A DNA stretch of 64,000 bases from an uncultured Spirochaetia bacterium (GTDB lineage Bacteria; Desulfobacterota_D; UBA1144; Nemesobacterales; JADFKM01): positions 60,237 to 124,236 of the forward strand of contig CAZXEJ010000001.1 in the NCBI GenBank assembly GCA_964639895.1. Reading direction: 5' to 3'. The translations under genes and the position numbers were made by a program. Shown here piece by piece: positions 12,184 through 55,628 of this stretch (position 1 is its first letter; the number at the start of each line of letters is the position of its first letter). The notes beneath the pieces are model-generated. The model was not told the origin of the DNA. It was given only the letters and a program-made list of their open reading frames with translations, and did not search any database.

Positions 12184-13068
12184 GTGATGGAACTGCTTGA
12201 AGCCATCGGAAGCCGCAGGAGCATAAGGTTTTTCAAGCCCTGGAAGGAGGTCGAGGACTGGAAGATCCAGGTCATGCTGCAGGCCGCCCGCCTCGCATCG
12301 TGCCAAGGGAACTGCAACTCCACCGAGGCCATAGTGATCGACAAGCGCACCTACCCCGAGGACCGTTTCGAGCAGTTGATCGGGTGCGTATCGGCCTTCA
12401 ACGAAATACAGATGCGCACGGCACCTATCGTGATCGCCTGGCTCATAAACATGGACGCATGGTACAAGGAACTGCTCAAATCGTTCGCCGTCCTCTTCCC
12501 GGCGCGGGCCGTGAGCGCGGCGCACGGCTGGACCTACAAGCTGCTCACCGAGGTCACCTATCCGCGTCTGATGAGCTTCCCCCGCGACAGGGCCGAGGAC
12601 ATGCTGCGTATAGAGGCCGGCCAGGCCATAGCAAACGCCCTGCTCGCGGCGACCGACCTGGGGCTGGGATGCTGCCTGTTGGCCGCAGGAAGGAAACCGC
12701 AGGAGCTGCCCAAGGTGCTGGGAGTGCCCGACAACATTGTGCCCGTATGGCTCATGGCCGTGGGGTACGCAGCCGAAGAACCGGGCCAGAGGCCCAGAAA
12801 GCGCTTCGACAGGCTTTACCACCTGAACGAGTACGGCACGCCGCTGCCCGAGGACCCGGAGGTCAAAGAGGAGCTCAAGGCTCTGGGCCTGTTCCAGCCC
12901 CCCGCCCCGCGTCCTGGCAGGGACGAAGAGATAAAACACGTCTGCAGGATGCTGGGCTACGAAGAAGGACTGCCCGACATGCCGCGGGAGCACGTGGAAG
13001 CGCTGTTCAATGAGGATTCGCCCTACTACGGTGAACTTCCCGAGGTGCTGAAGGAAAAGGGGGTCTGA
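12184..13068 (+). CDS. nitroreductase family protein
   Basis: 294 aa. The RRSIRFF motif at the N-terminus and overall nitroreductase-fold spacing. Confidence 0.85.
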   Translation: MMELLEAIGSRRSIRFFKPWKEVEDWKIQVMLQAARLASCQGNCNSTEAIVIDKRTYPEDRFEQLIGCVSAFNEIQMRTAPIVIAWLINMDAWYKELLKSFAVLFPARAVSAAHGWTYKLLTEVTYPRLMSFPRDRAEDMLRIEAGQAIANALLAATDLGLGCCLLAAGRKPQELPKVLGVPDNIVPVWLMAVGYAAEEPGQRPRKRFDRLYHLNEYGTPLPEDPEVKEELKALGLFQPPAPRPGRDEEIKHVCRMLGYEEGLPDMPREHVEALFNEDSPYYGELPEVLKEKGV

Positions 13069-14130
13069 GCCAGGGGGAGCATTCTCGGCGGTCGTGCGGG
13101 GGGAAGGTACAGCCAGCCCCCGCGGTTATGGCGCAAGGTGTAGCTGCGTTGCTGTCGCCAACATGGCTGTCCGTCCCAGCCGGAAAGAGTGGTGCGGCCA
13201 CACTTACCGTCCCCACTGCAAACCGACTGGGCGGACCGCGCCCCCCCCGGGAGGAGTTTGGCCCCTGCGACGAAGGGGGAAGCGGCCGACCATGACGGCC
13301 CGGAGCACATTCCCCTACCCCGCACCGGACACCCACGGAAACGCCAGGGCGGGAGTATGAGCGGGAAACGAATTTCGGGCGATGCGTCACGTAGATGGCC
13401 TCCATCCCGACCGTACCCTCCAAGAGTCGTACGGCGCACCCGAACGGCCAGCCGTCGCACCACGCGGCGCCTCCCTGCGGCGCCCGGTACCCCCGAGGAG
13501 GTTGCCCGCATCAATCCCGTGGCCACCTCTCCCATCCCAGCAGACACGTTTGCGAGAGAGCGGTTCACTCTGCTCTCTCATCCCCTACGGCACCATCGCC
13601 GTGCGGACAACTGCGGCGGGAGGCTCATTATCTGCTCGCACGCTACCCCCCGCCTGAGCCGTCGCAACCGCGACCGCTCCAACCACCATAATCCATCCGC
13701 CGTAGCCCACCGTGATGCCACCCTACCCCTACCGCCTCCGACCTCTCTCTCGCGGCACTACTTAGTATGGTTGTTCCCTTGGACCCTTCCGGCGGTTCTC
13801 CCACCAGTAATAGGGCGCGAGCATCCGGACCCTCCACCCACAGCAGGCAGGCGGCTGCACCAGGGGGGATAGGGGCGGGCTTTACCGATCGGTGAGGACT
13901 ACAGGAAAGAGGGCCGTACCCCCCTCTCCCGTACTGCTCAATCAACCCCTCCAGCGGCGACAATCAGGTACGCACAAAGAGACTAGTTTCCCTATCCACC
14001 TCTCTCCGGCGGTGCCAGCGGGCCAGGACACGCACGATGAGAGCGTAGAAACCAACACCGGGGGCATCCCTTACACCCGGCGCGGTGGCACAATACGGCC
14101 CCCCTACACACAGGGCACGGGTTGCGGCCT

Positions 14131-15294
14131 TCATCGCCCCGATACCGCCTCAGACATGAGTGTACGGACGGCCTCGGCCACCTCGGCGGGCGATATGGAG
14201 GCAAGACACTCCACCCCGCGGGGGCAGGGCGGCGTGTAGCCGAACCGCGTGCAAGGACTACATGGAAGGCGCTTGTTTACCACGCGTGCGGCCCCGCCGC
14301 GGGGGGCCCACTTAGCCTCTACACCTGCGCCGAACAGCGCGACGACGGGCGTACCCACACCGGCCGCTATGTGCATTAGGCCGCTGTCGGCCGTAACGAG
14401 GAGGTCTATCGCAGCCACAAGACGCGGCGTATCACGCAGCTCTACGGCGCCCGTCAGGTCCAACGCCCCCTCGCCGCCCACAGCCTCAACCACGCGGCGC
14501 CCGGCCTCTCTCTCAGACCTCCCGCCCAGCACCGCGACGCCGTAACCCATCTGGGCCAACACGCCGGCCAGAGAGACGAACCTTTCCTCCCCCCAACGCC
14601 TTTCCCTCACGCTCCCTCCCGGGAACAGGCCCACGACGGAACCCCTGCGCCGGCGCAACCCGTTGAGCCGTCCCACCCACATCGGCTCTCCCCCCTCCTC
14701 GGGCCGGTGCGGGAATATGAACGCCCGCTCGGGATCGAACACGCCGACATCGCCCCCCACGGCGGCGGCCGCAAGCCTGAGGAAGCTTACGGCCTCGTAC
14801 TCCTCGTGGTCGTAGGGCACTGCGGTCGAGAACATCCGGCGCCTCTCGTTGGTTGCGAACCCCACCCGGCGCGGGGCGCGTGTCAGCCACGCGACGAGCG
14901 CCGAGAGACGGTGCCACTGCTCGGTGTCGATTACCACATCGTAGCGCGTCCGGAGAACGGAGAAGAGTCCGTGTGCAGAGTCGTACGTATGGAGGGCGTC
15001 CACGTAGGGGCATGCCTCAAGAAGACCCGCATTCCTCTTCTCGCAGAGGACGTCGATGCTCCCGACGGAGGGTTCCTCGCTCAGCCTGCGCAGAGCGGGC
15101 CACAGGAGCGCGGCGTCCCCTATACCGCCCGGCCTTATGACAAGCACGCGCAACGGTCCGCCGGGCCGCGGAGGCGCCGTGCGCGGCGGCACCACTACGC
15201 GCGCCAGCAGGCACAACGGTCCTCCGAGAATGGAATCGAGCCGCTTGAGAACGGTCCTCTTTACGTACACACTGCCTCCGCACTTGGCCCCCAC
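14131..15294 (-). CDS. glycosyltransferase family 9 (ADP-heptose:LPS heptosyltransferase-like)
   Basis: 387 aa. RVLVIRPGGIGDAL.. N-terminal motif and the C-terminal DSGLMHIAAGVGTPVVALFG motif of GT9 enzymes. Confidence 0.85.
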   Translation of the reverse strand: MGAKCGGSVYVKRTVLKRLDSILGGPLCLLARVVVPPRTAPPRPGGPLRVLVIRPGGIGDAALLWPALRRLSEEPSVGSIDVLCEKRNAGLLEACPYVDALHTYDSAHGLFSVLRTRYDVVIDTEQWHRLSALVAWLTRAPRRVGFATNERRRMFSTAVPYDHEEYEAVSFLRLAAAAVGGDVGVFDPERAFIFPHRPEEGGEPMWVGRLNGLRRRRGSVVGLFPGGSVRERRWGEERFVSLAGVLAQMGYGVAVLGGRSEREAGRRVVEAVGGEGALDLTGAVELRDTPRLVAAIDLLVTADSGLMHIAAGVGTPVVALFGAGVEAKWAPRGGAARVVNKRLPCSPCTRFGYTPPCPRGVECLASISPAEVAEAVRTLMSEAVSGR

Positions 15295-15306
15295 CCGCCC
15301 TTGCTC

Positions 15307-16374
15307 TCAGCGGGTGTCCTTCACCGTGCCGGTCTCAGGGTCGTATCGGAACTCCTCACCCAGCGGGTGCTTGGGGAACTCGACCGTCTTGTCCTTGAGG
15401 ACGAACCGTTTGAGCTCGTCCAGGTCGCTGGGATATCGGCCGTACAGAGTCTTGAACCGCTGGGCGCGCGCCGTAAGAAACCCCGCCGCCTGGAGCAGCT
15501 CCTCGTCGACCAGAGCCGAACTCCTGATCCCCCGCAGACGCGGTGCCACGATGAAGGTGCCGCCCATCGGATCAGACGGCACGCGGTCGATGAGCCCCGC
15601 GGCCACAAGCTCCTCGACGTCGTTGGGCAGGCGGCCGTGCAGCCTCTCGAACTCCCGAGCCTTCTCGGTGAGCATACGCTCCAGCCTGCGCGACTCTATC
15701 TCGTTGAGCCTCCTCAGCGCGAACTTACGCCTGCCCTCGTTCGAGGAGTTCTCGTATATGTAGAGCCACACCCTTCGCGCAAGCTCCTCCTTTCCGCCCC
15801 TGGAGAGGGCCAGCGCCGCCATCCCCCTCAACGACGCGCGCCGGAAATCGCTGAGCCCGGGTTTGGATGCGGCTTCGGAGAAGAGCTCGGCCGCCTTCCG
15901 GTAGTCCTTCTTGTAGAGCATCCAGATGAAGGCCTCTTCGAGCGGGATGCGGAAGTTGTCGGGCAGGTTGGCACGTCCCTTATCGTAAAGCTTTATCCCG
16001 AGGTCGGTGGCTCCCAGCCCGATGGGGGGGAGGTCGGCGAGGAAGGTACCCCCGTAACGGTAGGCGTTGACGAACCCCGGGTCGAGGTCGGTTATGATGT
16101 CGAAGTACTTGTACAGCTCCTGCGGGTCAAGCTCTTCGATGGAGCTGCCGCCGAAGTACTGCAGCGCCCGCAACCAGTAGAGGTCGGCCAGCACCTCGTC
16201 GTATCCCAGCGATAACCTCTTGAGCGCCGCCGAGCTCATATACAGCGTCCCCCGTATGACGGCCTTCCTACCACGTGCATGATCGATCGAACGCTGCAAC
16301 GGGAGTGAGAGGGCGATTAGAGCTCCAACGACGACCACGGCCGCCCAGGGACGCCTGTTGAAGAAACCGAGCAT
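15307..16374 (-). CDS. membrane-anchored hypothetical protein with helical-repeat region and GspG-like C-terminal motifs
   Basis: 355 aa. N-terminal TM helix. The C-terminus carries two copies of a pseudopilin GspG-like motif (VPSDPMGGTF and KHPLGEEFRYDPETGTV). 12-13 nt gaps to both neighbours imply co-transcription with the ABC transporter and the GT9 gene. Confidence 0.6.
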   Translation of the reverse strand: MLGFFNRRPWAAVVVVGALIALSLPLQRSIDHARGRKAVIRGTLYMSSAALKRLSLGYDEVLADLYWLRALQYFGGSSIEELDPQELYKYFDIITDLDPGFVNAYRYGGTFLADLPPIGLGATDLGIKLYDKGRANLPDNFRIPLEEAFIWMLYKKDYRKAAELFSEAASKPGLSDFRRASLRGMAALALSRGGKEELARRVWLYIYENSSNEGRRKFALRRLNEIESRRLERMLTEKAREFERLHGRLPNDVEELVAAGLIDRVPSDPMGGTFIVAPRLRGIRSSALVDEELLQAAGFLTARAQRFKTLYGRYPSDLDELKRFVLKDKTVEFPKHPLGEEFRYDPETGTVKDTR

Positions 16375-16387
16375 CTCTCCCTCCTGC

Positions 16388-17224
16388 CTACTTGAACTCC
16401 CTCTTGTTGAAGATCACGATGGAGAGGAAGAGCAGCGCGGCGGTGTAGAGCGCCACGTAACAGGTGACGAGGAAGGCGTACTTCCAGCCTATGTATCCGC
16501 CGTAGACCGCCTCCGCCCTCATGTCAAGGGCGTCCAGATGGGGCAGTATAACGTAGACGAACTGGGTGACGGCCTTGGCCAGAGGGGCCTTTACCTCCTC
16601 GGCGAAGAGTCTGACGTCCGAGGCAAACCGGCCGGCTGCGAAGGTGAGGAAACACAGCAACACCGTCATGACAGGTGTGGTGAAGGTGGAAAACAGTATG
16701 GCAAGAGCGACCAGCACCAGGAACTCGAGGTACTCGAAGTAGATGGCCGTGAAATACTGCGGGTAGTGGCTGCCACCGTAGTAGAACCGGGATATGCCGC
16801 CGTGTGTGGTCTCAACCAGCAACACAAGCGCCGTAAGGACGGCCGCCATGGCCAGAGTGTTGACGAACAGGGTGAACGACAGGCCGAAGAACTTGCCGAG
16901 AATGAACTCGAACCGCCGCACCGGCTTGGAGAATATGTTGTAGACCGTCCTCTTGTCTATCTCCTTGAAGACGAGACCCATCCCCAGGAAGACGGAGATC
17001 ATTATCCCTATCACGGAGATTGCGGCGAGACCTATGTCCTTTACGATCTTGCCGTACTGCTCGGCCGATATGGAGGCGATCACCAGCGAGCTCAGGATCA
17101 TGAGCGCCGCAAAGAGGAACAGGCTGTAGAGCACCCTGTCCCGTATGGCCTCCGTAAACGTGTTCTTGGCGACCGACCAGACCCTCGAGAACGATCCCTT
17201 CACAGCACACCTATTGCCGCTCAT
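16388..17224 (-). CDS. ABC-2 family transporter permease
   Basis: 6-TM hydrophobic protein. The ORF track shows a longer 317-aa ORF to 17341 that overlaps the ATPase gene. A start at the internal Met (MSGNRCAV..) or the nearby GTG is more plausible. Confidence 0.8.
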   Translation of the reverse strand: MSGNRCAVKGSFSRVWSVAKNTFTEAIRDRVLYSLFLFAALMILSSLVIASISAEQYGKIVKDIGLAAISVIGIMISVFLGMGLVFKEIDKRTVYNIFSKPVRRFEFILGKFFGLSFTLFVNTLAMAAVLTALVLLVETTHGGISRFYYGGSHYPQYFTAIYFEYLEFLVLVALAILFSTFTTPVMTVLLCFLTFAAGRFASDVRLFAEEVKAPLAKAVTQFVYVILPHLDALDMRAEAVYGGYIGWKYAFLVTCYVALYTAALLFLSIVIFNKREFK

Positions 17225-18119
17225 TCTTGAACAACTCTTCCAGCGGTTTTCTGCTCGGGTAGAGAGAAACGACCTCGGCACCTCCATCGACGACGGCCTT
17301 GAGCACGCGTCCCTTGGCCTCCTCGGGGAAGCTGAGAACAACCATGCCCGCTCTCTCGCTCACCTCCACGCCGAGGCCGGCCAGGTGCGCGACCATCTCG
17401 TCGTCCACGCCGGCAAGCAGCATCTCGTAGCCCGCGCGCACCTCTTTGATAAGCTCTCCCAGCGTACCTTCCTTGACCGTCCTGCCGTGCATTATCACCC
17501 CCACCCTGTCGCACAGCGCCTCGAGATCGGAGAGGATGTGGGAACTGAGCACGATGGTCTTGCCCCGACTCTTCTCTTCCACGATGACGTCCTTCATCTC
17601 GCGCTGGCCCACCGGATCGAGGCCGCTCATAGGCTCGTCGAGGACCAGGAAGTCGGGATCGTTGATAAGTGCCTGAGCAATGCCTATCCGCTGTAACATC
17701 CCTTTGGAATACTTGCGCAGCTGAACCCCGCGGGCATGGGTGAGCTTGACCTTCTCCAGAAGCTCGTCCACACGCACCCTCAGCCTGCGGTGGGGGATGC
17801 CGTGCAGCTCGCCGACGTAGCGGAGCAGTTCTTCGCCGGTCAGATAGTCGTAAAAGTATGGGTTCTCGGGCAGGTATCCCAGGCGGGCCTTTAGACCGAC
17901 GTCGGTATGGGGCCTTCCCATTATCTCGATCGCACCCGAGGTGGGCTCGGAGAAACCGAGCATCACCTTGAAGGTGGTGGTCTTGCCGGCGCCGTTGTGG
18001 CCCACGAAGCCGTAGATCTCACCCCGATGAACGGTGAGGTTCACGTCGTGCAGCACACGGACCTTGCTCCTGAAGAAACCCGTTTTGTACTCCTTGACCA
18101 GACCTCGGATCTTGAGCAT
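17211..18119 (-). CDS. ABC transporter ATP-binding protein
   Basis: Walker A GHNGAGKTTTFKVMLG, ABC signature and Walker B LVLDEPMSGLD. Start taken at MLKIRGLVKEY (Met 11 of the tracked ORF). Confidence 0.9.
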   Translation of the reverse strand: MLKIRGLVKEYKTGFFRSKVRVLHDVNLTVHRGEIYGFVGHNGAGKTTTFKVMLGFSEPTSGAIEIMGRPHTDVGLKARLGYLPENPYFYDYLTGEELLRYVGELHGIPHRRLRVRVDELLEKVKLTHARGVQLRKYSKGMLQRIGIAQALINDPDFLVLDEPMSGLDPVGQREMKDVIVEEKSRGKTIVLSSHILSDLEALCDRVGVIMHGRTVKEGTLGELIKEVRAGYEMLLAGVDDEMVAHLAGLGVEVSERAGMVVLSFPEEAKGRVLKAVVDGGAEVVSLYPSRKPLEELFKNERQ

Positions 18120-18318
18120 GGCGCTGAAGGCGAAACAGTGCGAGACCAAACGTCCAGCGGGCAGCGCCCCACCGGGGGCATCGTGCCATTTAACTATAAA
18201 CCATTCAATCTCTCACCCAAAATCACCTTCGCCGTTCCCTGCTCAGGCTCCCTCATAGGCGGCGGGAAAGATGAGTGCAGGCCGCCGGACGAACTCGCAG
18301 GCCGCCGGCGGGTAAGGA

Positions 18319-18918
18319 TCAGTCACACTTGGTGGAATTGAACTTGTTCGATTCGAACTTGCCCGGCAAACCGGTCGATACCGAGCCAAGGCTGCAGCGT
18401 ATGACGCCGTCAGAATAGACCGAAAAGTCCTTGCGGCCGGTCTTGCGCATCTGTACCGGCGATGCCTGCCAGCCGAAGTCGTCGTAGTACCCGCTACCCG
18501 AGGGCAGGATGTTGGCGGAGTCGAACTGTATGCAGTAGCCCGCCTTGGGCCTCGCGCACAACGCCGTTCCGGCCGAGGTCGCAACGGCGGATATGAAGGT
18601 GTCGTCTATAAGTTCGTCCTCCCGCGTGCAGCCGGCCCTTGGGCATACGAGCGAACCCGGCGTCGTCCTGTCGCCGATGAGATTGGTGTAATCGAGAACC
18701 TGGTTCTCGTCCAGGTCCTGCTCGAAGTACTCCCCCTCGGCGTCCCTCAGCGTCTGCAGCGCCTTTCGCGCGCTGGCCTCGTTGGCGCTGATTCGCGCCT
18801 TCATGAGGTTCGGCACGGCTATGGCGGTAAGGATGGAGATGATCGCGACCACGGCCAGAAGCTCGACCAGAGTAAAGCCCCTCGCTCCAACGTAACCCCT
18901 GACGTACCGATAGTCCAT
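18319..18918 (-). CDS. type IV pilin (prepilin-type N-terminal cleavage/methylation domain)
   Basis: 200 aa from MDYRYVRGYVGARG|FTLVELLAVVAIISILTAIAVPNL, the class III signal with G-1/F+1 and E+5. AAGGGGG Shine-Dalgarno upstream. C-terminal Cys pairs. The tracked ORF extends spuriously upstream to 19287. Confidence 0.85.
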   Translation of the reverse strand: MDYRYVRGYVGARGFTLVELLAVVAIISILTAIAVPNLMKARISANEASARKALQTLRDAEGEYFEQDLDENQVLDYTNLIGDRTTPGSLVCPRAGCTREDELIDDTFISAVATSAGTALCARPKAGYCIQFDSANILPSGSGYYDDFGWQASPVQMRKTGRKDFSVYSDGVIRCSLGSVSTGLPGKFESNKFNSTKCD

Positions 18919-19346
18919 ACTTCCGTACCCCCTTAGCCTGAGCTGTGTGCGGCCGCAAGGCCGGATGAGCCCGACATCAAGCAGAACGTCCGCCCTGAAC
19001 GCCGGCCGGATCCCCACCACCTGCTCCTGGACACGCAGACCCCATCCTGAACGTTGCCAACGGACGGCTACGACCGCGCCCTGACCCACGTACGGACACC
19101 GAGGCCGATGGCACACCGGACGACGCTTCGAGAGGAGATCAGTCATCCCCAAAGCGGGGGCACCCCCCCGGGGGGATGGGAGGGCACCGCTATCCGAAAC
19201 TTCAAGCCGCCACCTTCCCCACTTGGGACAAACCGATATGGAGGGCGGAGAACGTTCGGCCGTCGTCCTTCCACCCTCCGATCGCAACTACGCTGCACTG
19301 CAACACATCTGCACCCTCGTCGGCGTGCGACCACGGAACCCTATCA

Positions 19347-19937
19347 TCAGTCGCATGCGCCGTCGTTACGGTCCGCCTCGAAGGTCCCCGGGTTGCCTGT
19401 AGTCGAGGTGCTCACGCTGCACCTTATAACGCCGTCGGCGTAGACGGCGAAGTCCCTACGACCCGTCTTCCTGAACGACGTCATCGAGGCCTGCCAGCCG
19501 AAGTCCTGGAACACCGCCGGCGTCCCAACGGCCGTCACGCTCGTGTCCCACTGTATGCAATAGCCTGCCTTGGGTCCGCTGCAGGTGGCCGTACCGGTGG
19601 CGTCGGATGCGGCTTCGAAGCTGTCGTCGATGAGGGCGTCCTCCTCCTGAGCAGTCCCTTCGGGGTCTCGCAGCGAGGGAGAGGTCCCCAGGGAACCGAT
19701 GGTGTCGATATAGTCCCTGACACCGTTGTTGTCGAGGTCCTGCTCGAAGTACTCGCCCTCGGCGTCCCTCAAGGTCTGTAGAGCCTTGCGGGCGTTGGCC
19801 TCGTTCGCCGAAATCCTCGCCTTTATGAGGTTCGGTATGGCGATGGCGAGAAGGATCCCGATGATGGCCGCCACGACGAGCAGCTCGATCAGGGTGAAAC
19901 CCTTCTCCCCTTTGATAGACCTGAGTGGGTGGAACAT
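19347..19937 (-). CDS. type IV pilin (major pilin candidate, PilA-like)
   Basis: 196 aa. MFHPLRSIKGEKG|FTLIELLVVAAIIGILLAIAIPNL. Paralog of the downstream pilin, with the shared block ARISANEA.ARKALQTLRDAEGEYFEQDLD and a C-terminal disulfide loop. Confidence 0.9.
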   Translation of the reverse strand: MFHPLRSIKGEKGFTLIELLVVAAIIGILLAIAIPNLIKARISANEANARKALQTLRDAEGEYFEQDLDNNGVRDYIDTIGSLGTSPSLRDPEGTAQEEDALIDDSFEAASDATGTATCSGPKAGYCIQWDTSVTAVGTPAVFQDFGWQASMTSFRKTGRRDFAVYADGVIRCSVSTSTTGNPGTFEADRNDGACD

Positions 19938-19973
19938 AGTTCACCTCCATTGAACAGTCTTTGGCTGCTTATA

Positions 19974-19992
19974 GTACAAGTAACGTGCCACT
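19974..19992 (-). promoter_or_regulatory. sigma54-like -24/-12 promoter candidate upstream of the pilin gene
   Basis: On the minus strand this reads TGGCACGTTACTTGTA: a perfect GG (-24) element with correct GG-N10 spacing to a -12 TTGT (consensus TTGC). It lies about 40 nt upstream of the pilin start. Confidence 0.35.
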
Positions 19993-20071
19993 CGCCGCTT
20001 CGGCTGGCCGTCGCAACATCCGGAAATCGTTGACATTATGAGTGCGTAAAAATTAGGCACTTCCGGATCCC

Positions 20072-20119
20072 TGACAATTTTTGTCAAGATAGGCCCCGAT
20101 CGGCTGACAATCTTTGTCC
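20072..20119. promoter_or_regulatory. two TGACAA-N3-TTGTCA palindromes (candidate enhancer or operator sites)
   Basis: TGACAAtttTTGTCA (perfect, 20072-20086) and TGACAAtctTTGTCc (20105-20119), centres 33 bp apart, located 80-130 bp upstream of the sigma54-like element. Confidence 0.3.
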
Positions 20120-20323
20120 CAAATCGCTACGATATTTGCTCGTATTGAAGGAATATTAAGGGGAAAACCTCATGACCAACTTTAAGTCAGCGAGAGCGTC
20201 CCTGTAGAAATCGACTCCCATTTGCTCTATAATGGGTTGCCCGCGACGATGCTGCGTGCGGCACTGCTGGAACCGCGGCCCCGCATATCCGGGCGAAGAC
20301 CACGACAGGGGGAGACACGAACT

Positions 20324-20866
20324 ATGGGACGCTTTCCAAGACCCCTTACAGCCGCGGCGATACTGTCCGCGGCGCTGCTGGCCGTAGGATGCGGCGACCT
20401 GAAGACCGTCTCCTACATCGCCCCCACCAGCACCAAACTAAGCAGTTACAACTACGTCGAAGTGGCGACGTTCGAGACCGAAGTAGAAGACGTACCCGAC
20501 GAGGCGCTCGACCTGCTGCCCAAGGCGGTGGCAAAGGAGATAAGAAAAGCCAATCTGGGCTTCAAGCAGGTCGTATGGGGGGACGAGGAGTTGCCCTACG
20601 AAAAGGGGGTCTTCGTTATATTCGGCACCATCGTCGACTACCAGCCGGGAACCGAACTGAGGGCCGAGGGGGGGAGTATCAAGTTCGGTGAAGCCGCCCT
20701 CACTGTGAGGCTCAGCATAGTGGACAAGGCCACGGGACGAGAGATCACCAACGGCGAGATAAACAGCTCCAGTTCGCTCGGTTTCCTCAAGCGTGGCTTC
20801 ATAACGCCGGGCGTGTACGAGGCCATAGCCAGAGAAGTGGTCAAATTCATAAAGGACAACAGCTAG
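20324..20866 (+). CDS. hypothetical lipoprotein
   Basis: Start at MGRFPRPLTAAAILSAALLAVGC, giving a lipobox LAVGC. A TATAAT lies about 90 nt upstream. 180 aa, no recognised domain. Confidence 0.6.
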   Translation: MGRFPRPLTAAAILSAALLAVGCGDLKTVSYIAPTSTKLSSYNYVEVATFETEVEDVPDEALDLLPKAVAKEIRKANLGFKQVVWGDEELPYEKGVFVIFGTIVDYQPGTELRAEGGSIKFGEAALTVRLSIVDKATGREITNGEINSSSSLGFLKRGFITPGVYEAIAREVVKFIKDNS

Positions 20867-23222: not shown

Positions 23223-23984
23223 CTAAGTCTCTCCGGGACTCGACACTGGATAGATTCTACATCATATAATCTTTTCACATCTATAAAAAGACGAGAGGGC
23301 CCCCGCCGGAATGGAGATACGAGGGGCAAAGATCCGCTCACGCTATCTCTACAGCCCACGCGACCGCCACGGGACCCACAGGCTGGGACGCGCCCTATTG
23401 CTTCCTCACTTCTTTTTCTTCTACGGGCGCAGGGCTCACGCGACCTCCCTCACACCACAACGGGCAGGCCCATCGCTCATACGGCAGCAGGGCTTTGCTC
23501 ACATTTCAACCTCCCGTGCAGCGGTGTGGAGGAGCAGGTCGAGCAGCTGAGTGGCCCCACGAAGAAAAAGGGGGGCGCTCAACCCCAGGCTCACCGCCTC
23601 TATCACCGGGGGCGCCCACCCGTGCAGCCGGCGCCGAGGGGTGAAGGCACAGAGAGCACATCAAGGCGATAAGGGGCGGCCGTCACATTGCCTCCAAGGC
23701 GGCTGCCGAGGGGGGGGTGAAGGCGAAGCTCGATTCGCCCCTCACGCACTCCCGAAGCCGTTCTTCCTACCGCACCCCCTGAGCCGAGGCACGCTCCTCA
23801 CTCCGCCCGCTCCCACGGACCCGGTGGGGGATGCCGGAGCCCGCCCGTCCTCAATAGTCCTCCAAAGCCGCTCGCTTCTCAAACACTGGACCGCAACCGC
23901 CCTTTTCAGGCCAACCCGCAGGGCGAGTCGCCGGGGGGTAAAGCCCTTGGCGGCCGCAGTGTCAGGGAATGCAGGCCCCTTTTT

Positions 23985-23995
23985 TGTGATATAAT
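23985..23995 (+). promoter_or_regulatory. extended -10 promoter (TGTGATATAAT)
   Basis: TGnTATAAT consensus about 85 nt upstream of the acidic small ORF. Followed by a 9-bp perfect palindrome GAGGCGGCC-c-GGCCGCCTC in the leader. Confidence 0.35.
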
Positions 23996-24080
23996 TTCTA
24001 AATCCACCGAGGCGGCCCGGCCGCCTCAGGCGGGCGGCAAGGTGAGTCCCCCCGCGACAGAATTCAAGGAGAGTAGTGTG

Positions 24081-24260
24081 ATGGGCAGCCAAGGTATGGA
24101 GACAAGACGTAACCCTCTATGGCAGGAAGGTAACGGGGCCGAGCGCAGACGCATCGAGCCCTGGGAAGAAGAGGAGTTCGATGAACTCATGGAAGAGGAA
24201 GAGTATGAGGACGAGGAGGACGAAGAAGACTGGGACGACGAGTTCGATGAGGACCACTGA
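24081..24260 (+). CDS. small, extremely acidic protein (59 aa)
   Basis: AAGGAGAG Shine-Dalgarno 9 nt upstream of the ATG. Sequence MGSQGMETRRNPLWQEGNGAERRRIEPWEEEEFDELMEEEEYEDEEDEEDWDDEFDEDH. The tracked ORF starts earlier at 24042. Confidence 0.5.
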   Translation: MGSQGMETRRNPLWQEGNGAERRRIEPWEEEEFDELMEEEEYEDEEDEEDWDDEFDEDH

Positions 24261-24324
24261 ACCGTCCTCAGCCAGGGCGCTACCCTCCGGAGCGGTAGGG
24301 AACGGGAGGACAGGATAAGCTACG

Positions 24325-45618: not shown

Positions 45619-46577
45619 CTTGTAACACCCCCTGCACGGAATAGTCCCCTGGGAGAAAACCCCAAGCAACCCAACTAAAATCTATTATGAAACAAAAAAG
45701 GGCCGGTGACAAAGCAGCCGACGACACATGCGCTCACGACCGGGAAGGAGCGCTCTACGAGGGGGCCGTGTTTCGGCCGAGGGTTCCTGGATCCAAAGCA
45801 GCAAGCAGGCAACATCACTTCAGACCCCCGCCCACATCTCCCACCAGCGCATGGACTAAGGAACCACGAGCATTATCCACCAAAAACCTTCCGTACCCCC
45901 CCTCACCCCGGCGGACGAGGATAACCTCCACTCATCCGATCCCCCAACACACAGGGACAAAGACGCTTACAACGGGGAAATGCGACACCGGTGGGCGTTA
46001 CCCCTCGTGCATCAGGGGGGGACAAAGGCCACCGCACGGGGCGTCTATGCGGCCTCCCCTACCACCATGGTCTGAGGAGCACACTCCGCAATGCCGCACC
46101 GGGCAAGGGACGGAACCGCATAGTTGCGCGAGACGCCGCATGCACGTACTTCATCCCATGGCAGCCGCTCCAACACGGCAACCGCCGTCGAGTCCGACTT
46201 GCGGGCCCGCGTGAAGGGAGGCATACCACGTAGAGGTAGAGGCAAACAATGGACGCCCCGACCCACGGCGCCCGTGGGAACGCAGATGTGGCGGGGGCCT
46301 GGGCACCTACATGCCGCCGCCACAAGCAGCCCGAGCACAGGGCACGCGTTCGGCAGCCAGCCGCCGACGGCGGGTCTATACGGCCGGAGCGAGAGTGCTC
46401 GTCACCTTCGTCCACGGCTCGATGCGGCTCGCCCACAGGCGCTCCAAGGATGCAACGCCCATGCAACTCGAAAGGATTGTGTATATTTGAGCACGTCGGC
46501 ACTCCCTTTTGCCGAGGCCGCCTTCTACTCTGGCGGCGTCCATGGACGGGAGAGGAGCCCCCTCCGTCCGAGGCGGC

Positions 46578-49033: not shown

Positions 49034-49807
49034 ATGAGGATCCATATTCTAGGCTGTTCAGGCTCACAGACGACGGGCTCCGGTACGACCTCCATCCTCG
49101 TTGACGACACCCTGCTCGTAGACGCCGGCACGGCCGCCGTCGACGTCCCGCACTCGACGCGGCTCGGGCTGAGCGGCGTCGTGCTTACCCACGCCCACCT
49201 CGACCACGTGTGCGGGCTCGCCTTCCTGCTCGACTCCCGGCACGCCCGGGACGGTCGTACGCTGCCCCTTGCAGCCTCACCGAGCACGATCGAGGCGCTG
49301 AGAGACCACCTGTTCAACGACCTCATCTGGCCCGATCTCACGAGGCTTCCCACCCCCGCCCGCCCGGCGATCACCTACGTCTCCCTGCCGCCATGCGAGC
49401 CGCACTCATTGTGCGGCTACACGGTCACGGCCGTTCCCGTCGACCACTCCATCCCCACCGTCGGCCTCATCCTGTCCGACGGCCGCTCGGCCGTGGCCTT
49501 CTCATCCGACACCGGCCCCACGGAGAAATTCTGGGAGGCCGTGGGCGGCGACCCCTCCGTGAGGGCGCTCATCGTGGAGTGCTCCTTCCCGAACGAGATG
49601 GAGCGCGAGGCCGTGGCGACGGACCACCTTACGCCGAGGATGCTGGGAAGGGAACTTGCCAAATGCACCCGCCCCGGGATGGAGGTCTACGTGACCCACC
49701 TGAAACCCCCCTACAGGGAGCGCATAGCGCGTGAGCTGATGGAGCTCAGTCTGAAGACGGGGATGGAGCTTACGTTGCTGAGGGACGGCATGACGATCGA
49801 CGTCTAG
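49034..49807 (+). CDS. class II 3',5'-cyclic-nucleotide phosphodiesterase (MBL fold)
   Basis: 257 aa. THAHLDHVCGLAFLLDS closely matches the class II cAMP-PDE signature HxHLDH..G. Confidence 0.75.
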   Translation: MRIHILGCSGSQTTGSGTTSILVDDTLLVDAGTAAVDVPHSTRLGLSGVVLTHAHLDHVCGLAFLLDSRHARDGRTLPLAASPSTIEALRDHLFNDLIWPDLTRLPTPARPAITYVSLPPCEPHSLCGYTVTAVPVDHSIPTVGLILSDGRSAVAFSSDTGPTEKFWEAVGGDPSVRALIVECSFPNEMEREAVATDHLTPRMLGRELAKCTRPGMEVYVTHLKPPYRERIARELMELSLKTGMELTLLRDGMTIDV

Positions 49808-49864
49808 CGCACGGCAAGGGCGCCGTGGGAAGGCCGCCAGGGGAGTGCGGCGCACGAGGATACG

Positions 49865-52018
49865 ATGGTCCGAGGACGAAGCGAGACCAGCCGAGGACGA
49901 AGGGCGCTCGCCGCGGCGCTTCTGGCTGGTGCCGTGGGCGCGCTGCTGGGCGCTGCCCTATACGTGCTCAATCCCCAGCCGCTCTATGAGATCGACCGCC
50001 GTCTCGTCGACGAGAGGCAGAGGCTGCGGGGCCCCCGCCGGCCCCCCGCCGAGGTGGTGCTCGTGGCCATCGACGAGAAGAGCATCAACCGCTACGGGCG
50101 CTGGCCGTGGCCGAGGAGCCGCGTGGCGTCGCTCATCGAAAGGATAGCCAAAGCCGGGGCCAAGACGATCGCCCTCGACGTCGTCTTCTCCGAGCCTGCC
50201 ACTCCCGCCGAGGACGGCGCCCTCGCCGAGGCCGTAGCACGGGCGGGCAACGTGGTGCTGGGCTACTTCTTCCGCGACGACGCCTCCTCACCTCCTCCCG
50301 CCGAGGCGCTCGAGCAGCTCAAGAGGAGCGCCGTCAGGATAACCCTCGGCGAGCTCGACCGGCCGCCGCTCGGCTTTCCGGACGTCGAACTGAACATACC
50401 TTCGCTCGGGCGCGGGGCCTCGGCGATGGGGTTTTTCAACTTCCCCACGGCCGATCCGGACGGCCTCCTCAGGAGGTCACTCCTTGTGGCGTCGTTCCGT
50501 GGAGCCATATACCCTTCGCTCGCCCTTGCGGCGGCAAGCAGCTTCGTCGGCGGGTCCCCGGCGATGCGAGCCGGCCCCCGCCGGGGGGTGGAGGGGTTCG
50601 TGCTGGGCAGCCTCCAGGTAACGACCACACCCCACGGCGAGCTCGTGCTCAACTACTACGGTCCCGCGGGCTCGCTCCCCACGGTGAGCGCAGCCGATGT
50701 GCTCGACGGAACCTTCGTCGGCGACACCCTTGCGGGAAGGCTCGTATTGGTCGGGGCCACGGAGACGGGCATAGCCGACACGCGGGCGACCCCCCTTGAG
50801 CCGTTCATGCCTGGCGTGGAGGTGCAGGCCACGGCCGCCGCCAACATCTTGGACGGCTCCTTCCTCGTAGAGGGCCCGGCGTCGCGCATCGCCGACTACG
50901 CGGCTCTCGTCGTGCTGCCGCTCGCCCTGGGCCTTGTGCTCGCCTTCGTGCCGTCTACCCCCGTCGGCGCGACGGTCTGGCTCGCCGCGCTCGCACTGGA
51001 GGCAACGGCGGGCTACTGGCTGTTCCGCGCATTCAACCTTTCGACGACGGCCCTCTATCCGGCGCTCTCGCTCACGGCGGCGTTCGTTCTCTTCGAGAGC
51101 TACCGCAACGTCGCTCTGGAGAGGAGGCGTCGGTACCTGCGGCGCGCCTTCTCCACCTACCTGGCCCCGGAGCTCGTCCGCAGGCTCGTCGAGGACCCCG
51201 ACCGCCTGCGCCTGGGGGGACGGACGGCCGAGGTGACGGTGCTTTTCTGTGACGTGCGCGGTTTCACCAGACTCGCCGAGAGCCTCTCGGCCGAGGAGAC
51301 GGTCGAGCTGCTCAACTCGATGCTCGGCCCCCTGAGCCGGATCGTGATGAACGAGGGCGGAATGCTCGACAAGTACCTGGGCGACGGCCTGATGGCCGTC
51401 TTCGGGGCCCCCATCGAGGTGGAGGACCACGCGCGGCGGGCCTGCAGGGCGGCCCTCGAGATGGCGGCCGCCGTCGAGCGGCTCAACGAAGAGCGCGCAG
51501 GGCGCGGACTGGCACCACTGCGGCTGGGCATAGGCATCAGCACCGGGCGCGCCGTCGTGGGCAACATCGGGGCCGACGTGAGGTTCGACTTCACCGCCGT
51601 GGGCGATGCCGTCAACGTGGCCTCACGCCTGGAGGAGCTCTCGAAGCACTACGGGGCCACGATCGTCGTAAGCGAATCCACCCGCGAGGCCCTCGGCGAC
51701 GGGGAATTCACTGCGAGGCGGCTCGATACGGTGAGGCTCAGGGGGCGGCGTCGGCCGGTGGCCGTCTACGAGATAGTGCCTACAGGAGACGCCGCCCGCA
51801 GGGCCGAGAGGTTCGAGAGGGCAAGGCTTCTCTATACGGAGAAGAGGTTTGGCGAAGCGCTGGCGCTGTTCCGGGCCATAGTGGAAGACGACCCCTCGGA
51901 CGGCCCAGCGTTGCTATACGTGCGAAGGTGCGAACGCCTGATCGAGAACCCGCCCTCGCCGGAGTGGGACGCGGTGTTTGAGGCCGAAGCGGAAGAAAGT
52001 TTCCCCGAGACCACATAG
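49865..52018 (+). CDS. CHASE2 sensor domain-containing adenylate/guanylate cyclase
   Basis: 717 aa. N-terminal TM, periplasmic CHASE2-like region (VVLVAIDEKS...YGRWPWPR), 3-4 TM helices, and a C-terminal class III cyclase domain (FCDVRGFT..., GDG.MAVFGAP). Confidence 0.9.
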   Translation: MVRGRSETSRGRRALAAALLAGAVGALLGAALYVLNPQPLYEIDRRLVDERQRLRGPRRPPAEVVLVAIDEKSINRYGRWPWPRSRVASLIERIAKAGAKTIALDVVFSEPATPAEDGALAEAVARAGNVVLGYFFRDDASSPPPAEALEQLKRSAVRITLGELDRPPLGFPDVELNIPSLGRGASAMGFFNFPTADPDGLLRRSLLVASFRGAIYPSLALAAASSFVGGSPAMRAGPRRGVEGFVLGSLQVTTTPHGELVLNYYGPAGSLPTVSAADVLDGTFVGDTLAGRLVLVGATETGIADTRATPLEPFMPGVEVQATAAANILDGSFLVEGPASRIADYAALVVLPLALGLVLAFVPSTPVGATVWLAALALEATAGYWLFRAFNLSTTALYPALSLTAAFVLFESYRNVALERRRRYLRRAFSTYLAPELVRRLVEDPDRLRLGGRTAEVTVLFCDVRGFTRLAESLSAEETVELLNSMLGPLSRIVMNEGGMLDKYLGDGLMAVFGAPIEVEDHARRACRAALEMAAAVERLNEERAGRGLAPLRLGIGISTGRAVVGNIGADVRFDFTAVGDAVNVASRLEELSKHYGATIVVSESTREALGDGEFTARRLDTVRLRGRRRPVAVYEIVPTGDAARRAERFERARLLYTEKRFGEALALFRAIVEDDPSDGPALLYVRRCERLIENPPSPEWDAVFEAEAEESFPETT

Positions 52019-52197
52019 AGCCCCGGGGCAAGAAACGCCGTTACAGGACGTTACGTGACGAAGCGGAGAAAATGCCTTACCCATGCGTTTTAACTCGCTT
52101 GCATCATAACATATCCAATCTCCAGCGCACGAGATGGACGGAGGGGACCGGAATTAAAGGACACAATTAACTTTTGGTCCAAATCGCCTATCCCGTA

Positions 52198-52227
52198 TTG
52201 ACATTTGATCAAAAAAGGCTGTACAAT
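52198..52227 (+). promoter_or_regulatory. near-consensus sigma70 promoter (TTGACA-N18-TACAAT)
   Basis: TTGACAtttgatcaaaaaaggctgTACAAT lies 60 nt upstream of the TPR/beta-barrel gene. The spacer contains the palindrome TTGATCAA. The leader carries a GGGGAAGT direct repeat. Confidence 0.4.
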
Positions 52228-52286
52228 GTGGGGGAAGTCCGTCCCCGTAGGGCGACAGGCGGGGAAGTGGTGCGAGAAGGGATGAG

Positions 52287-53813
52287 ATGAAGAGACTCCA
52301 TCTGCTTACGACCGCCGCACTACTAGCCGGCATGCTTGCCGCCCTACCACTCCATGCCCAAGAACCCCCGGCCGGGAGAGCCTACGAGACCCGCCTCAAC
52401 AAGGCTTTGGCGGCCTACTACCGGCACAACTACGAGCAGGCGGCCTCGCTGCTCGAGACGCTGCTCGAGGCCAATCCCGACGATGTCGCCGCTACCCACT
52501 ACATGGGGCTAGTGCTCTACAAGTTTGGCCGCTACGACGAGGCTATCGGATTTCTCGAGCGGGCTCGTCGACTCGATCCGTCGCTTCCCGCGATAGAGCT
52601 AGACATAGGTCTTGCGCGCCTCAAGCAGGGACACTACGAGGAGGCCCTCGAGGCACTTCGGCACGCACAGAAAAAGCTTCCCGCAAGCGGATTCGTGGCG
52701 TTCAATATCGGCTACACGCTGTTTCTCCTAGACCGCTACGAGGAAGCCTTGGTCGAGCTACGCCGGGCGCGGCGACTGGACGCCGATTTCAGCGTCCCAT
52801 CGCTCTTCTACGAAGGGCTCTCCCTATATCACCTCGGCCGCTACCCCTCAGCGCTGGCCACGCTCCGCGACGTCCGCCGCCGGGGTGCAGGAACACCGTT
52901 CGGCATTTCCGCCGCTAGCTACATCGCCACACTCGAGCTGCTGACCAAGCCCTACTACGGCGCCCTTTCCACAGGTTACCAGTTCGACACCAATGTCGTC
53001 CTTGAGCCTGACGCGATCGAGATAACCGACGAGCAGGACAGCCGCTGGTTTGCAAACTTCACCGTCGCCTGGAGGCCCGTGCTCAAGGACGACTACGAGC
53101 TCAAGGCCTCCTGGAACACATACTTCTCCCTCCACGCCGACATCGAGCAGCTTAACCTGCAGGCCCATCGCTTCGACATCACCAGCACCAAACGCACCAC
53201 CCTCGGCCGCTACCCGGCGGCCTTCACCTTCAACTACTTCTACAACTTCGTCCTCGTCGACGGTTCCCCGGCCGACGAGCTGTTCTCCCAGACGCACGCC
53301 GTCTCACAGTCGTTGAGCGTCGCCTGGGCCAAGCACATCTCGACCGAGGTGGCGGCCGAGCTTCGCTTCGACAACTTCAAGGAGTTCCCCGAGCGTGACG
53401 CCGTCCGGGCTACTTTCACCGTTGCCGAATCCATCCTGCTGAGGCGGGGGCTCACGCTGCTGCGCCCCGGTGTGACGGCATCGTTCAACTTCGCAGACGA
53501 TATCGCTGGCAGGCGCAACTTCGACCAGGCCCTGGGCGGTGTGTTCATCGAGACCACTTCCTACATGCCGTGGGAGCTCACCCTGTTCGCCCGCCTACAC
53601 TACTACGCCGCTTCCTATTACAACGACCCCTTCGACAGGGTGGACAACCAGCTCGGCCTCAAGGTGGTCGTCTCACGCAGGCTCTACCGGACGGTCTCGC
53701 TCGACCTCGGCTGGGAGAACGTCTCCAACTTCTCCAGCAGCGACTTTCCCGGCCCCGAGCCGTTCGAATATTTCCGCAACATCTTCTCGGCCACTTTGTC
53801 CGCACGTTTTTAG
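52287..53813 (+). CDS. outer-membrane protein with N-terminal TPR domain and C-terminal beta-barrel (Slam/DUF560-like architecture)
   Basis: 508 aa. Signal peptide MKRLHLLTTAALLAGMLAALPLHA. About 6 TPR-like repeats in residues 30-230. The C-terminal ~280 aa show alternating amphipathic beta-strand patterning and end in ..ATLSARF, the aromatic terminal residue typical of an OMP beta-signal. Confidence 0.7.
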   Translation: MKRLHLLTTAALLAGMLAALPLHAQEPPAGRAYETRLNKALAAYYRHNYEQAASLLETLLEANPDDVAATHYMGLVLYKFGRYDEAIGFLERARRLDPSLPAIELDIGLARLKQGHYEEALEALRHAQKKLPASGFVAFNIGYTLFLLDRYEEALVELRRARRLDADFSVPSLFYEGLSLYHLGRYPSALATLRDVRRRGAGTPFGISAASYIATLELLTKPYYGALSTGYQFDTNVVLEPDAIEITDEQDSRWFANFTVAWRPVLKDDYELKASWNTYFSLHADIEQLNLQAHRFDITSTKRTTLGRYPAAFTFNYFYNFVLVDGSPADELFSQTHAVSQSLSVAWAKHISTEVAAELRFDNFKEFPERDAVRATFTVAESILLRRGLTLLRPGVTASFNFADDIAGRRNFDQALGGVFIETTSYMPWELTLFARLHYYAASYYNDPFDRVDNQLGLKVVVSRRLYRTVSLDLGWENVSNFSSSDFPGPEPFEYFRNIFSATLSARF

Positions 53814-53842
53814 CATTATATTTAACGGTTAGGAGGGCGTAA

Positions 53843-54691
53843 GTGCGTAACTCATCCGTCCTGGCTTCGGCTGGGGTGATAGTGTGTATTATCCTCTGCG
53901 TCGCAACCGCTGGGCGCGCCCACGCCCAACAGCGGGGAGACGCCGTGGGTGTGGTCACGGTGACCGTGGGCGCCGTATCGGTGGAGAGCAACGGCCTCGT
54001 GGAGCGCGTGGTGCCGGGCTCCGCCGTCTACGTGGGAGACGTCTTCAGGACGGGTGAGGACTCGGCGCTCAACATCATGCTCGACGACGACACGTTGCTC
54101 ACACTGGGCGCCGACGCTGAATTGGAGATCACTCGGTTCATCTACAACCCCGCGGCCGAGAGGAACTCGACGTTCAGGGTGCTGAAAGGCATCCTCAAGG
54201 CCGTCGTGGAGAGATTCGCCGCGGGCCCCTCGGAAGTGAGGTTTGTGACGCCGCGCGGTGTGGCCGGCATAAAGGGTACCGTGCTGTATGTCGACGCCGA
54301 CCGCGGTGTGTTCTACGTATTGGAGGGTACGGTGCATGTACGGGGCACCGCCCCCCAAGCCGCCGAGGTGGTGCTTACGAGCGGCACCTATACGGTGATC
54401 CCCGAAGGAGGTTCGCCCTCCAGTCCGGCCGCGGCAGACGACGAACTGAGAGAGGGCTTCGAGAAGGCCACACACGTCGAGCCGACGCCCGGTGCTCAAG
54501 ACCCCTCGAGGGAGGAAGACTACCCCGGCAGCGAGGCGGGCGACGACTATTCCAAGACGTTCGAGGGCGGAAGCGCCGGCTGGCTCGCAAGCAACCTTCC
54601 GCTGAGGCCGCCCGTGGACCTGTTGCCGAGCGTGGACGTACACAACAGGGCGCTGGTCGAGGTGGTGATACCCACGCCGCCCGGACCCTGA
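53843..54691 (+). CDS. FecR-domain protein (secreted/periplasmic)
   Basis: 282 aa. GTG start 10 nt after an AGGAGGG Shine-Dalgarno. Signal peptide, then a FecR-like region (VGVVTVTVGAVSVESNGLVERVVPGSAVYVGDVFRTGEDSALNIMLDDDTLLTLGADAELEI). Confidence 0.7.
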   Translation: MRNSSVLASAGVIVCIILCVATAGRAHAQQRGDAVGVVTVTVGAVSVESNGLVERVVPGSAVYVGDVFRTGEDSALNIMLDDDTLLTLGADAELEITRFIYNPAAERNSTFRVLKGILKAVVERFAAGPSEVRFVTPRGVAGIKGTVLYVDADRGVFYVLEGTVHVRGTAPQAAEVVLTSGTYTVIPEGGSPSSPAAADDELREGFEKATHVEPTPGAQDPSREEDYPGSEAGDDYSKTFEGGSAGWLASNLPLRPPVDLLPSVDVHNRALVEVVIPTPPGP

Positions 54692-54716
54692 GGGCGCCGC
54701 GACAGAGTGAGGAGAG

Positions 54717-55628
54717 ATGACGAAACAGCAACGCCATACCCAAGGGCCGGCGCAAGGGGCCGAGATCCAAACCGTACCATGTAGTTTCGCGGCCTACGCC
54801 GTAAAGACCGCTCTGCTCATTCTCGTCTTCGCCGCCGCGGCCTCATGCGGCGGGGGGGGCACCGACACGGCCACCATCACCGTGATGACGGAGTTTCCCC
54901 ACGCCCCTGCCGTGGGGGTGACATCGGCGGAATCGAGTGCTTCCACGCTGGGAATCGATACCGTCTCGCTCAGCGTGCTCGGGCCCGACATGGAAGAGAT
55001 ACGGCGCACCTTCTCCGCACCCGGTCTTGATTCGGCGGGCGAAGCCGTCTTTGCAAGGATATTCCTCTTCGTCCCCGTGGGCCCCGACAGGGTATTCCGA
55101 GTGGTCCTCTCTGACGAGGGAGGACGTACCGTGTTCACGGGGTCGGCGACCTCAGACATCGAGCCCGGGCACAACGTGGTGGTCATACCGCTCAGGCCAA
55201 AGGACTGCGCCGACGGCCTTGACGACGATTTCAACGGCCTGATCGACTGCGCCGACGTCGTAAGCTGCGAGGGACAACCGTGCGATCAATCTGACATGAG
55301 AAAGATATGTATCGAAGGGGCGTGTGAGCTGCCGCCGGAGGCGTCCGGGCCGCCGGTTCCGGCCCCTCCCTCGGCGGGCGGCGAGGAGAACTGCGCCAAC
55401 GGCATTGACGACGACGGAGACGGGTTCACCGACTGCCAGGACACGTGGGACTGCGCCGGCAGGCTGTGTCTCGACGAAGACGAGACCGCCGGATCCTGCG
55501 ATCCAACTACTTCGAGCTGCGTAGTACCGGAAACCCAGCCCACCCCGGTGCCCATACCGAGCGGACCCCCGATGCCCACTCCATCTCCGTCACCCACGTT
55601 CTCGCCGCCTCCGCCTCCGCTGGGTTGA
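54717..55628 (+). CDS. lipoprotein with Cys/Asp-rich calcium-binding-like repeats and Pro-rich tail
   Basis: 303 aa. TM/signal plus lipobox (AAAASC). Two repeats CADGLDDDFNGLIDCADVVSC and CANGIDDDGDGFTDCQDTWDCAG, resembling thrombospondin-type-3-like DxDxDG motifs. C-terminus PTPVPIPSGPPMPTPSPSPTFSPPPPPLG. Confidence 0.65.
   Translation: MTKQQRHTQGPAQGAEIQTVPCSFAAYAVKTALLILVFAAAASCGGGGTDTATITVMTEFPHAPAVGVTSAESSASTLGIDTVSLSVLGPDMEEIRRTFSAPGLDSAGEAVFARIFLFVPVGPDRVFRVVLSDEGGRTVFTGSATSDIEPGHNVVVIPLRPKDCADGLDDDFNGLIDCADVVSCEGQPCDQSDMRKICIEGACELPPEASGPPVPAPPSAGGEENCANGIDDDGDGFTDCQDTWDCAGRLCLDEDETAGSCDPTTSSCVVPETQPTPVPIPSGPPMPTPSPSPTFSPPPPPLG

Follow-up and report, generated by a model that had tools for sequence, protein, structure and literature searches.

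The best-described counterpart of the locus analyzed here is the pilA-pilG-pilH-pilI locus of Myxococcus xanthus (MXAN_5783-5780), where pilAGHI forms one operon that is required for social (S) motility (PMC3546991). PilG, PilH, and PilI have been stated to be necessary for pilin translocation across the inner membrane (PMC3724824, citing Wu et al. 1998), and a delta-pilGHI strain lost both S motility and exopolysaccharide (EPS) (PMC5544727). Here, we describe a gene block from an uncultured bacterium, found on a stretch of 64,000 nucleotides of contig CAZXEJ010000001.1 (hereafter, the window), which consists of two type IV pilin genes followed by genes for an ATP-binding cassette (ABC) ATPase, an ABC-2 permease, a membrane-anchored accessory protein, and a GT9 glycosyltransferase. 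We consider it likely that this locus is the Dadabacteria form of the pilA-pilGHI module, that is, pilins controlled in a sigma54/PilR-type manner together with a pilHIG inner-membrane complex. The homology, the conserved linkage, and the conserved regulatory motifs that lead to this assignment can be read directly from the compared sequences. The find is a fairly ordinary one, a well-supported lineage-specific version of a known module, and it extends the pilA-PilGHI module from Myxococcus to the uncultured Candidatus Dadabacteria. A literature search found no paper on Dadabacteria pili.

In the list of open reading frames (ORFs) of the window, all six genes are on the minus strand and at the places given by the first-pass annotation. 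The locus contains the following features:

19347..19937, minus strand: pilin 1, 196 aa, with a 13-aa leader and the signal G↓FTLIELL; type IVa major-pilin-like, the conserved copy
18319..18921, minus strand: pilin 2, 200 aa, with a 14-aa leader and the signal G↓FTLVELL; the more divergent paralogue
17211..18116, minus strand: pilH-like ABC ATPase, 301 aa from the ATG at 18116; alternative TTG start at 18149
16388..17203, minus strand: pilI-like ABC-2 permease, 271 aa from the GTG at 17203 (start codon read off the sequence); an alternative ATG at 17224 overlaps pilH
15307..16374, minus strand: pilG-like accessory protein, 355 aa, with a predicted N-terminal membrane helix, a domain resembling tetratricopeptide repeats (TPR), and two alpha/beta modules
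14131..15294, minus strand: GT9 glycosyltransferase (heptosyltransferase-like); likely start at the GTG at 15270, after GGAGG
19975..19990, minus strand: sigma54-type -24/-12 element TGGCACGTTACTTGTA, with GG at -24 and GT for GC at -12
20072..20086, minus strand: perfect palindrome TGACAAAAATTGTCA, ~80 bp upstream of the -24 element
20105-20119: second, weaker copy of the palindrome, GGACAAAGATTGTCA, near TGACAAAAATTGTCA
20222..20866, plus strand: predicted lipoprotein gene (LAVGC lipobox), divergent from the pilin promoter region

The pilin genes are separated by a spacer of 425 nt; the distance of 428 bp reported before had counted the stop codon. A gap of 202 nt, in line with the earlier figure of ~200 bp, leads from pilin 2 to the ATPase ATG at 18116, and the ATPase, permease, accessory, and GT9 genes then follow each other with gaps of 7, 13, and 12-36 nt. 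The Pfam domains and the predicted N-terminal helix of the third protein confirmed that this block encodes an ABC ATPase, an ABC-2 permease, a membrane-anchored protein, and a GT9 enzyme.

As the reference for comparison, we used the pil locus of Myxococcus sp. Y35, which was recovered via PilA and in which gene names follow from position and from published work (PMC3546991). There, pilB-pilT-pilC-pilS-pilR-pilA come first, genes for a 305-aa protein, an ABC ATPase, and a PF12679 permease come next, and pilD comes last, which agrees with the pilAGHI operon (PMC3546991). The locus in the window resembles that of M. xanthus in that a sigma54-type promoter precedes a large type IVa pilin gene (in the Myxococcus locus, TGGCATGCTCGGTGCT is found upstream of pilA) and in that the pilin is followed by a homologous ABC ATPase, a PF12679 ABC-2 permease, and a single-pass accessory protein. 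The leaders of 13-14 aa also resemble the 12-aa leader of M. xanthus. Unlike in Myxococcus, the order is H-I-G rather than G-H-I, two pilin genes are present, the pilin head is without the PF14245 Pilin_PilA domain, and the module is not flanked by pilBTC, pilSR, or pilD.

The proposal of a PilGHI-like ABC system downstream of a sigma54-type pilin pair is supported by homology of the three proteins to Myxococcus PilG, PilH, and PilI. The ATPase (PF00005, E 9e-30) shares 40% identity with PilH of Myxococcus in an alignment of 295 aa that takes in the C-terminal extension (E 7e-74). The phmmer scores of the ATPase are 235 bits against PilH, 240 bits against human ABCA3, and 179 bits against NosF, and since ABCA3 scores like PilH, the ATPase alone is non-diagnostic. 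The permease (PF12679 ABC2_membrane_2, E 5e-9) is 27% identical to Myxococcus PilI end to end (264 aa, E 2e-29), and the accessory protein is 29% identical to Myxococcus PilG over 243 aa (E 5e-27). The PDB contains NosFY and other ABC-2 systems, yet neither the permease (no sequence match at E <= 1) nor the accessory protein (no match at E <= 1e-4) matches any entry in it. As judged from these alignments, the matches to PilI and PilG are the specific homology evidence. Every component of PilGHI has a counterpart here, with an accessory protein predicted to span the membrane once beside the ABC ATPase and the ABC-2 permease, and all three are placed directly downstream of the major pilin gene, as they are in ~40 Dadabacteria loci and in a sister clade.

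The NosDFY and GldAFG systems offer a further comparison. The ATPase is related to NosF and to GldA (187 bits), and in these systems, as here, an ATPase and an ABC-2 permease are combined with an extracytoplasmic accessory protein; the permease belongs to the Pfam family of the NosDFY and GldAFG permeases. In contrast to those systems, the permease and accessory protein encoded here match no solved structure, and the genomic partner of the module is a pilin gene and not nosZ or gliding genes.

The conservation of the block was followed in related loci, of which three came from looking up exact proteins and 38 from scanning species-representative genomes, and in a sister-clade set of 80 metagenome loci, in 32 of which (those of at least 6 kb) gene order was read. 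Homologues of the accessory protein occur in metagenome-assembled genomes labelled Candidatus Dadabacteria, Thermodesulfobacteriota, or 'Deltaproteobacteria', so that a high-GC bacterium of this lineage is the most likely source of the window. The block of pilin(s), ATPase, permease, and accessory protein is found in essentially every related locus (~40), with one or two pilin genes and usually with the divergent lipoprotein gene upstream. In the sister clade, which comes from soil and sediment metagenomes, the order H-I-G is seen in 32/32 loci, with pilD directly after G in 16/32 and pilS-pilR-pilA upstream, often with pilC before, in 13/32. Identities between the window and sister-clade proteins are ~46% for the ATPase, 37% for the permease, and 34% for the accessory protein.

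These pilC-pilS-pilR-pilA-pilH-pilI-pilG-pilD clusters of the sister clade share with the window the H-I-G order and one to three upstream pilin genes, and many also carry the sigma54 element and a TGACA-N5-TGTCA palindrome; they differ in that the pilus machinery and regulator genes stay beside the module. The first-pass annotation had remarked that the gene order is unlike that of Myxococcus. This difference is real, but it is no peculiarity of the window, because every sister-clade locus examined with these genes, and indeed every non-Myxococcus locus examined, has H-I-G. On the gene orders compared, H-I-G is the common arrangement, and the G-H-I of Myxococcus looks like a variant. By the same comparison, the module normally lies between pilA and pilD, and what is peculiar to Dadabacteria is that it is parted from pilBTC, pilSR, and pilD.

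The first-pass annotation described two head-to-tail paralogous pilin genes with a shared class III signal, a conserved helix, and C-terminal cysteines, and this description holds. Both pilins match the N_methyl/IV_pilin_GFxxxE domain above threshold (Pfam, NCBIfam), and share 58% identity from end to end. Each of them has G↓FTL(I/V)ELL and a KARISANEA(N/S)ARKALQTLRDAEGEYFEQDLD helix, and both show the elements of a class III signal peptide, namely G-1, F+1, and E+5 followed by a hydrophobic helix. Within the pilin family, G-1, T+2, and E+5 never vary, F+1 hardly does, and four cysteines are conserved (C119, C127, C173, and C195), which include the C-terminal pair C173/C195. The N-terminal helix of the family profile matches Geobacter PilA-N (E 7e-13) and the M. 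xanthus PilA structure 8tj2 (E 8e-13), as compared to an E value of 2.5e-3 for GspG, and the best NCBIfam match is Myxococcus PilA. By these profile matches, the helix is nearest to the major pilins of the type IVa class (Geobacter, Myxococcus) and not to pseudopilins. An AlphaFold2 model of pilin 1, with a predicted local distance difference test (pLDDT) score of 88, consists of a 50-residue N-terminal helix and a four-stranded beta-sheet head, so that the predicted architecture is a helix plus four strands. Its best fold match, which is weak (E 0.028), is again 8tj2, the M. xanthus pilus subunit.

Pilin 2 is the divergent copy, as all other family members are closer to pilin 1. Among the uncultured Thermodesulfobacteriota and Dadabacteria homologues listed, pilin 1 is 60-77% identical over its full length, compared with 53-66% for the ATPase and 44-55% for the accessory protein. 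Pilin 1 is thus conserved at least as well as the ATPase and better than the accessory protein, which is unusual for a surface-exposed major pilin.

Upstream of pilin 1, the element TGGCACGTTACTTGTA (19990-19975, minus strand) ends 37 nt before the ATG. The first-pass annotation had called it sigma54-like, and its position, its GG, and its spacing are right, while its -12 element, TTGT, is weak. Allowing up to one mismatch, the promoter consensus has two matches in the window versus 1.2 expected, so TGGCACGTTACTTGTA taken alone is no better than chance. It becomes significant because orthologous loci carry the element at the same place: TGGCA(C/T)-N5-TTGC(A/T) occurs at the equivalent position in 27/29 Dadabacteria loci, 44-85 nt before the start of the first-pilin tblastn match, against a background rate of ~0.02 per 440 nt. 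Of the 27 matching loci, 25 have a canonical site, and one locus (L036) has the TTGT variant found in the window. A weight matrix derived from 22 other loci placed the window site second of the ~128,000 window positions scored and first among GG-bearing sites, though with a score of 11.6 bits. The top-ranked position of the window, GAGTTGCATGGGCGTTGCATCC (46448-46469, minus strand, 14.0 bits), is without GG at -24 and for this reason is probably not a sigma54 promoter.

The second regulatory motif is the palindrome TGACAAAAATTGTCA, the sole TGACA-N5-TGTCA match in the window versus 0.02 expected. It is present at the equivalent position in 25/29 Dadabacteria loci, where the background is <= 0.05 per 450 bp, and its distance to the promoter reaches up to 150 bp in loci other than the window. 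The palindrome was also found upstream of pilA in several non-Dadabacteria loci with adjacent pilS-pilR, and it is probably the site of a PilR-type sigma54 activator. That it accompanies the pilin sigma54 promoter in several lineages makes it an aid to locus annotation and provides candidate PilR sites. In 8/18 loci with two pilin genes (L008, L011, L024, L026, L028, L034, L037, and L042), a distinct sigma54-like element, TGGTAT-N5-TTGC(A/T), precedes the second pilin gene. Because of this element, separate control of the two pilin paralogues is suggested for many Dadabacteria, though it is not visible in the window. No sigma54 element was found before the ATPase gene in the 24 loci examined, and scanning with consensus motifs revealed neither a convincing sigma70 promoter nor a convincing terminator for the operon.

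The accessory protein has no Pfam or NCBIfam family of its own, and at E <= 1e-3 it has homologues in 3718 clusters, whose representatives are in many cases ~300 aa and in others ~350 aa long. In an AlphaFold2 model (pLDDT 86), it consists of one N-terminal membrane helix, a TPR-like helical domain, and two alpha/beta modules (residues ~213-285 and 286-352). The two modules align with one another (hhalign probability 96%, E 3e-9), and the C-terminal repeat is, on this alignment, a genuine internal duplication. Myxococcus PilG has the first C-terminal module only, whereas the protein in the window has a second copy; likewise, sister-clade accessory proteins are ~300 aa with one C-terminal module, as compared to 355 aa and two modules here. 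Two GspG-like motifs had been proposed for this region. The repeat stands, but the link to GspG is weakly supported: module 1 aligns with a set of three GspG sequences at an hhalign probability of 52% (E 1.4e-4), module 2 aligns with the same set at 2%, which is not significant, and the Pfam T2SSG family gave no match to the modules at E <= 10. Fold searches with the full model returned TPR proteins only, including the PilF and PilW lipoproteins among many. These predicted-fold matches appear generic and uninformative, and because TPR proteins dominate the searches, the C-terminal modules are not resolved by them.

Our current model of how the Dadabacteria pilin-pilHIG locus works goes beyond these comparisons in what we infer about operon structure, the activator, the complex, and its substrate. 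Pilin 1 would be transcribed from a sigma54-dependent promoter, and a PilR-type enhancer-binding protein bound to the TGACA-N5-TGTCA palindrome probably activates this promoter ~80 bp downstream. As all loci examined lack a sigma54 element ahead of pilH, transcription of the tightly packed pilH-pilI-pilG operon probably depends on read-through from the promoter of the pilins. Its products would assemble into an inner-membrane complex of the ABC-2 type, composed of a cytoplasmic PilH ATPase dimer, the PilI permease, and PilG, the latter with a one-helix anchor, a putatively periplasmic TPR-like domain, and the two repeated alpha/beta modules. By analogy with M. xanthus, the complex may act on the inner-membrane pilin pool by export, insertion, or hand-over of pilin. 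This role is suggested by genetic evidence, which comes from M. xanthus only (PMC3724824, PMC5544727), where pilG, pilH, and pilI mutants are without pili and S motility, and by the strict linkage to pilin seen here. The pilin would then be polymerized by a pilus machine encoded elsewhere in the genome.

Several observations weigh against the assignment to the pilA-pilGHI module. As the first-pass annotation had noted for the pilus machinery, no pilB/T/C/D/M signature was found in the window, and the same is true of pilS/R and rpoN signatures and of a sigma54 activator. In the Dadabacteria loci, no pilBTC, pilSR, or pilD gene was found within 8 kb of the module, save in the distant outlier L045, and rpoN was likewise not found within that distance. 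The promoter has TTGT at -12 and, at 11.6 bits, falls short of the 18.6-29.5 bits spanned by the training sites, and a search that tolerated two mismatches revealed no second sigma54 element ahead of pilin 2 or pilH in the window. In addition, the ATPase matches eukaryotic ABCA nucleotide-binding domains as well as it matches PilH.

The distance from machinery genes could also mean that the module works without a classic pilus machine and that the ABC complex alone handles the pilins, which might be, for example, secreted or displayed on the membrane. Consistent with such a role, machinery genes are missing within 8 kb in ~40 Dadabacteria loci, and pilin 1 is, for a surface pilin, unusually conserved. 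However, the prepilin peptidase site and E+5 are invariant, and processing and helical assembly are therefore implied; moreover, scattered pil genes are common in bacteria. We regard this explanation as improbable. A more specific proposal, which is speculative and to which we give just as little credence, is that the Dadabacteria pilin-PilHIG genes form a self-contained unit in which the PilG modules, maybe similar to pseudopilin heads, dock the pilin head and the ABC-2 motor moves pilin into or out of the inner membrane, as an ATP-driven step in the handling or even the display of pilin that would be independent of PilB. If true, this would provide a mechanism for PilGHI, whose role has been unclear since 1998.

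The remaining alternatives to a Dadabacteria pilA-pilGHI module concern the GT9 gene and the identity of the pilins. The gene after the accessory gene was confirmed as GT9 (PF01075, E 2e-27), and it reaches 121.5 bits with TIGR02195, below the cut-off of 134.6. The first-pass annotation had raised the alternative of glycoconjugate export or modification by the ABC system. In this reading, GT9 would take part, the glycoconjugate could be a pilin glycan, lipopolysaccharide core, or exopolysaccharide, and the pilins would be mere neighbors. Glycan export is common among ABC-2 transporters, the GT9 gene starts just 12-36 nt after the accessory gene, and the protein has a faint match to the TibC/Aah protein heptosyltransferase model (E 0.004). 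Across related loci, GT9 is directly downstream in 8/38 and within 2 kb in five more, or in about a third of the loci; it is missing from most, with greA in its place in two complete genomes, and it is absent from 80/80 sister-clade loci. The distribution of GT9 is thus patchy, and glycoconjugate export is for that reason disfavored. On the gene orders compared, GT9 is a variable neighbor and not a conserved member of the module, while pilin genes and pilD flank H-I-G across lineages and the accessory protein is a PilG homologue. Pilin glycosylation, for its part, is known to proceed via oligosaccharyltransferases of other families. We consider it quite unlikely that the locus serves glycoconjugate export or modification.

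Least probable of all is a pseudopilin role for the two 'pilins', be it in a type II secretion system or in some other type IV filament that is not a pilus, a reading for which one could cite NCBIfam GspG, GspH, and ComG matches to the N-termini, all far below cut-offs, and a genome survey that reported a type II secretion system in some Dadabacteria clades (PMC8115339), but which is disfavored because the matches to type IVa major pilins (~1e-12) far outscore that to GspG, and against which stand the absence of gsp genes nearby and the sigma54 promoter, PilR-type site, and PilGHI linkage, all features of a type IVa pilus locus.

Around the pilin-pilHIG locus, the divergent lipoprotein gene has a homologue at the equal position and in the same orientation in ~30 Dadabacteria loci and none in sister-clade loci, and its product has no Pfam match. 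Predicted folding of the two intergenic spacers is no more stable than that of shuffled sequence (z 0.43 and -1.39). With a relaxed threshold, the Rfam models gave no relevant hit in 12900-20400, and BLASTN of the non-coding spacers against related loci gave no match. On the other side of the block, ~1 kb of GC-rich sequence (13069-14130) between a nitroreductase gene and the GT9 gene is without a convincing ORF, Rfam match, or similarity to related loci; in one relative (L005), the nitroreductase and GT9 genes are just 37 nt apart. A further stretch (23230-24261) consists of ~850 bp without a clear ORF followed by a small, very acidic, E/D-rich ORF (24081-24261, plus strand), with no similarity in related loci. 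The remainder of the window is ordinary chromosome, with genes for ATP synthase, RecJ, MurJ, TyrRS, a release factor, RNase P RNA, and an aa3-type cytochrome oxidase operon, among others. It also contains a run of signaling genes (49034-57284, plus strand), which encode a class-II cAMP phosphodiesterase/metallo-beta-lactamase-fold protein, a CHASE2-adenylate/guanylate cyclase, a TPR protein, and a GAF-HD protein.

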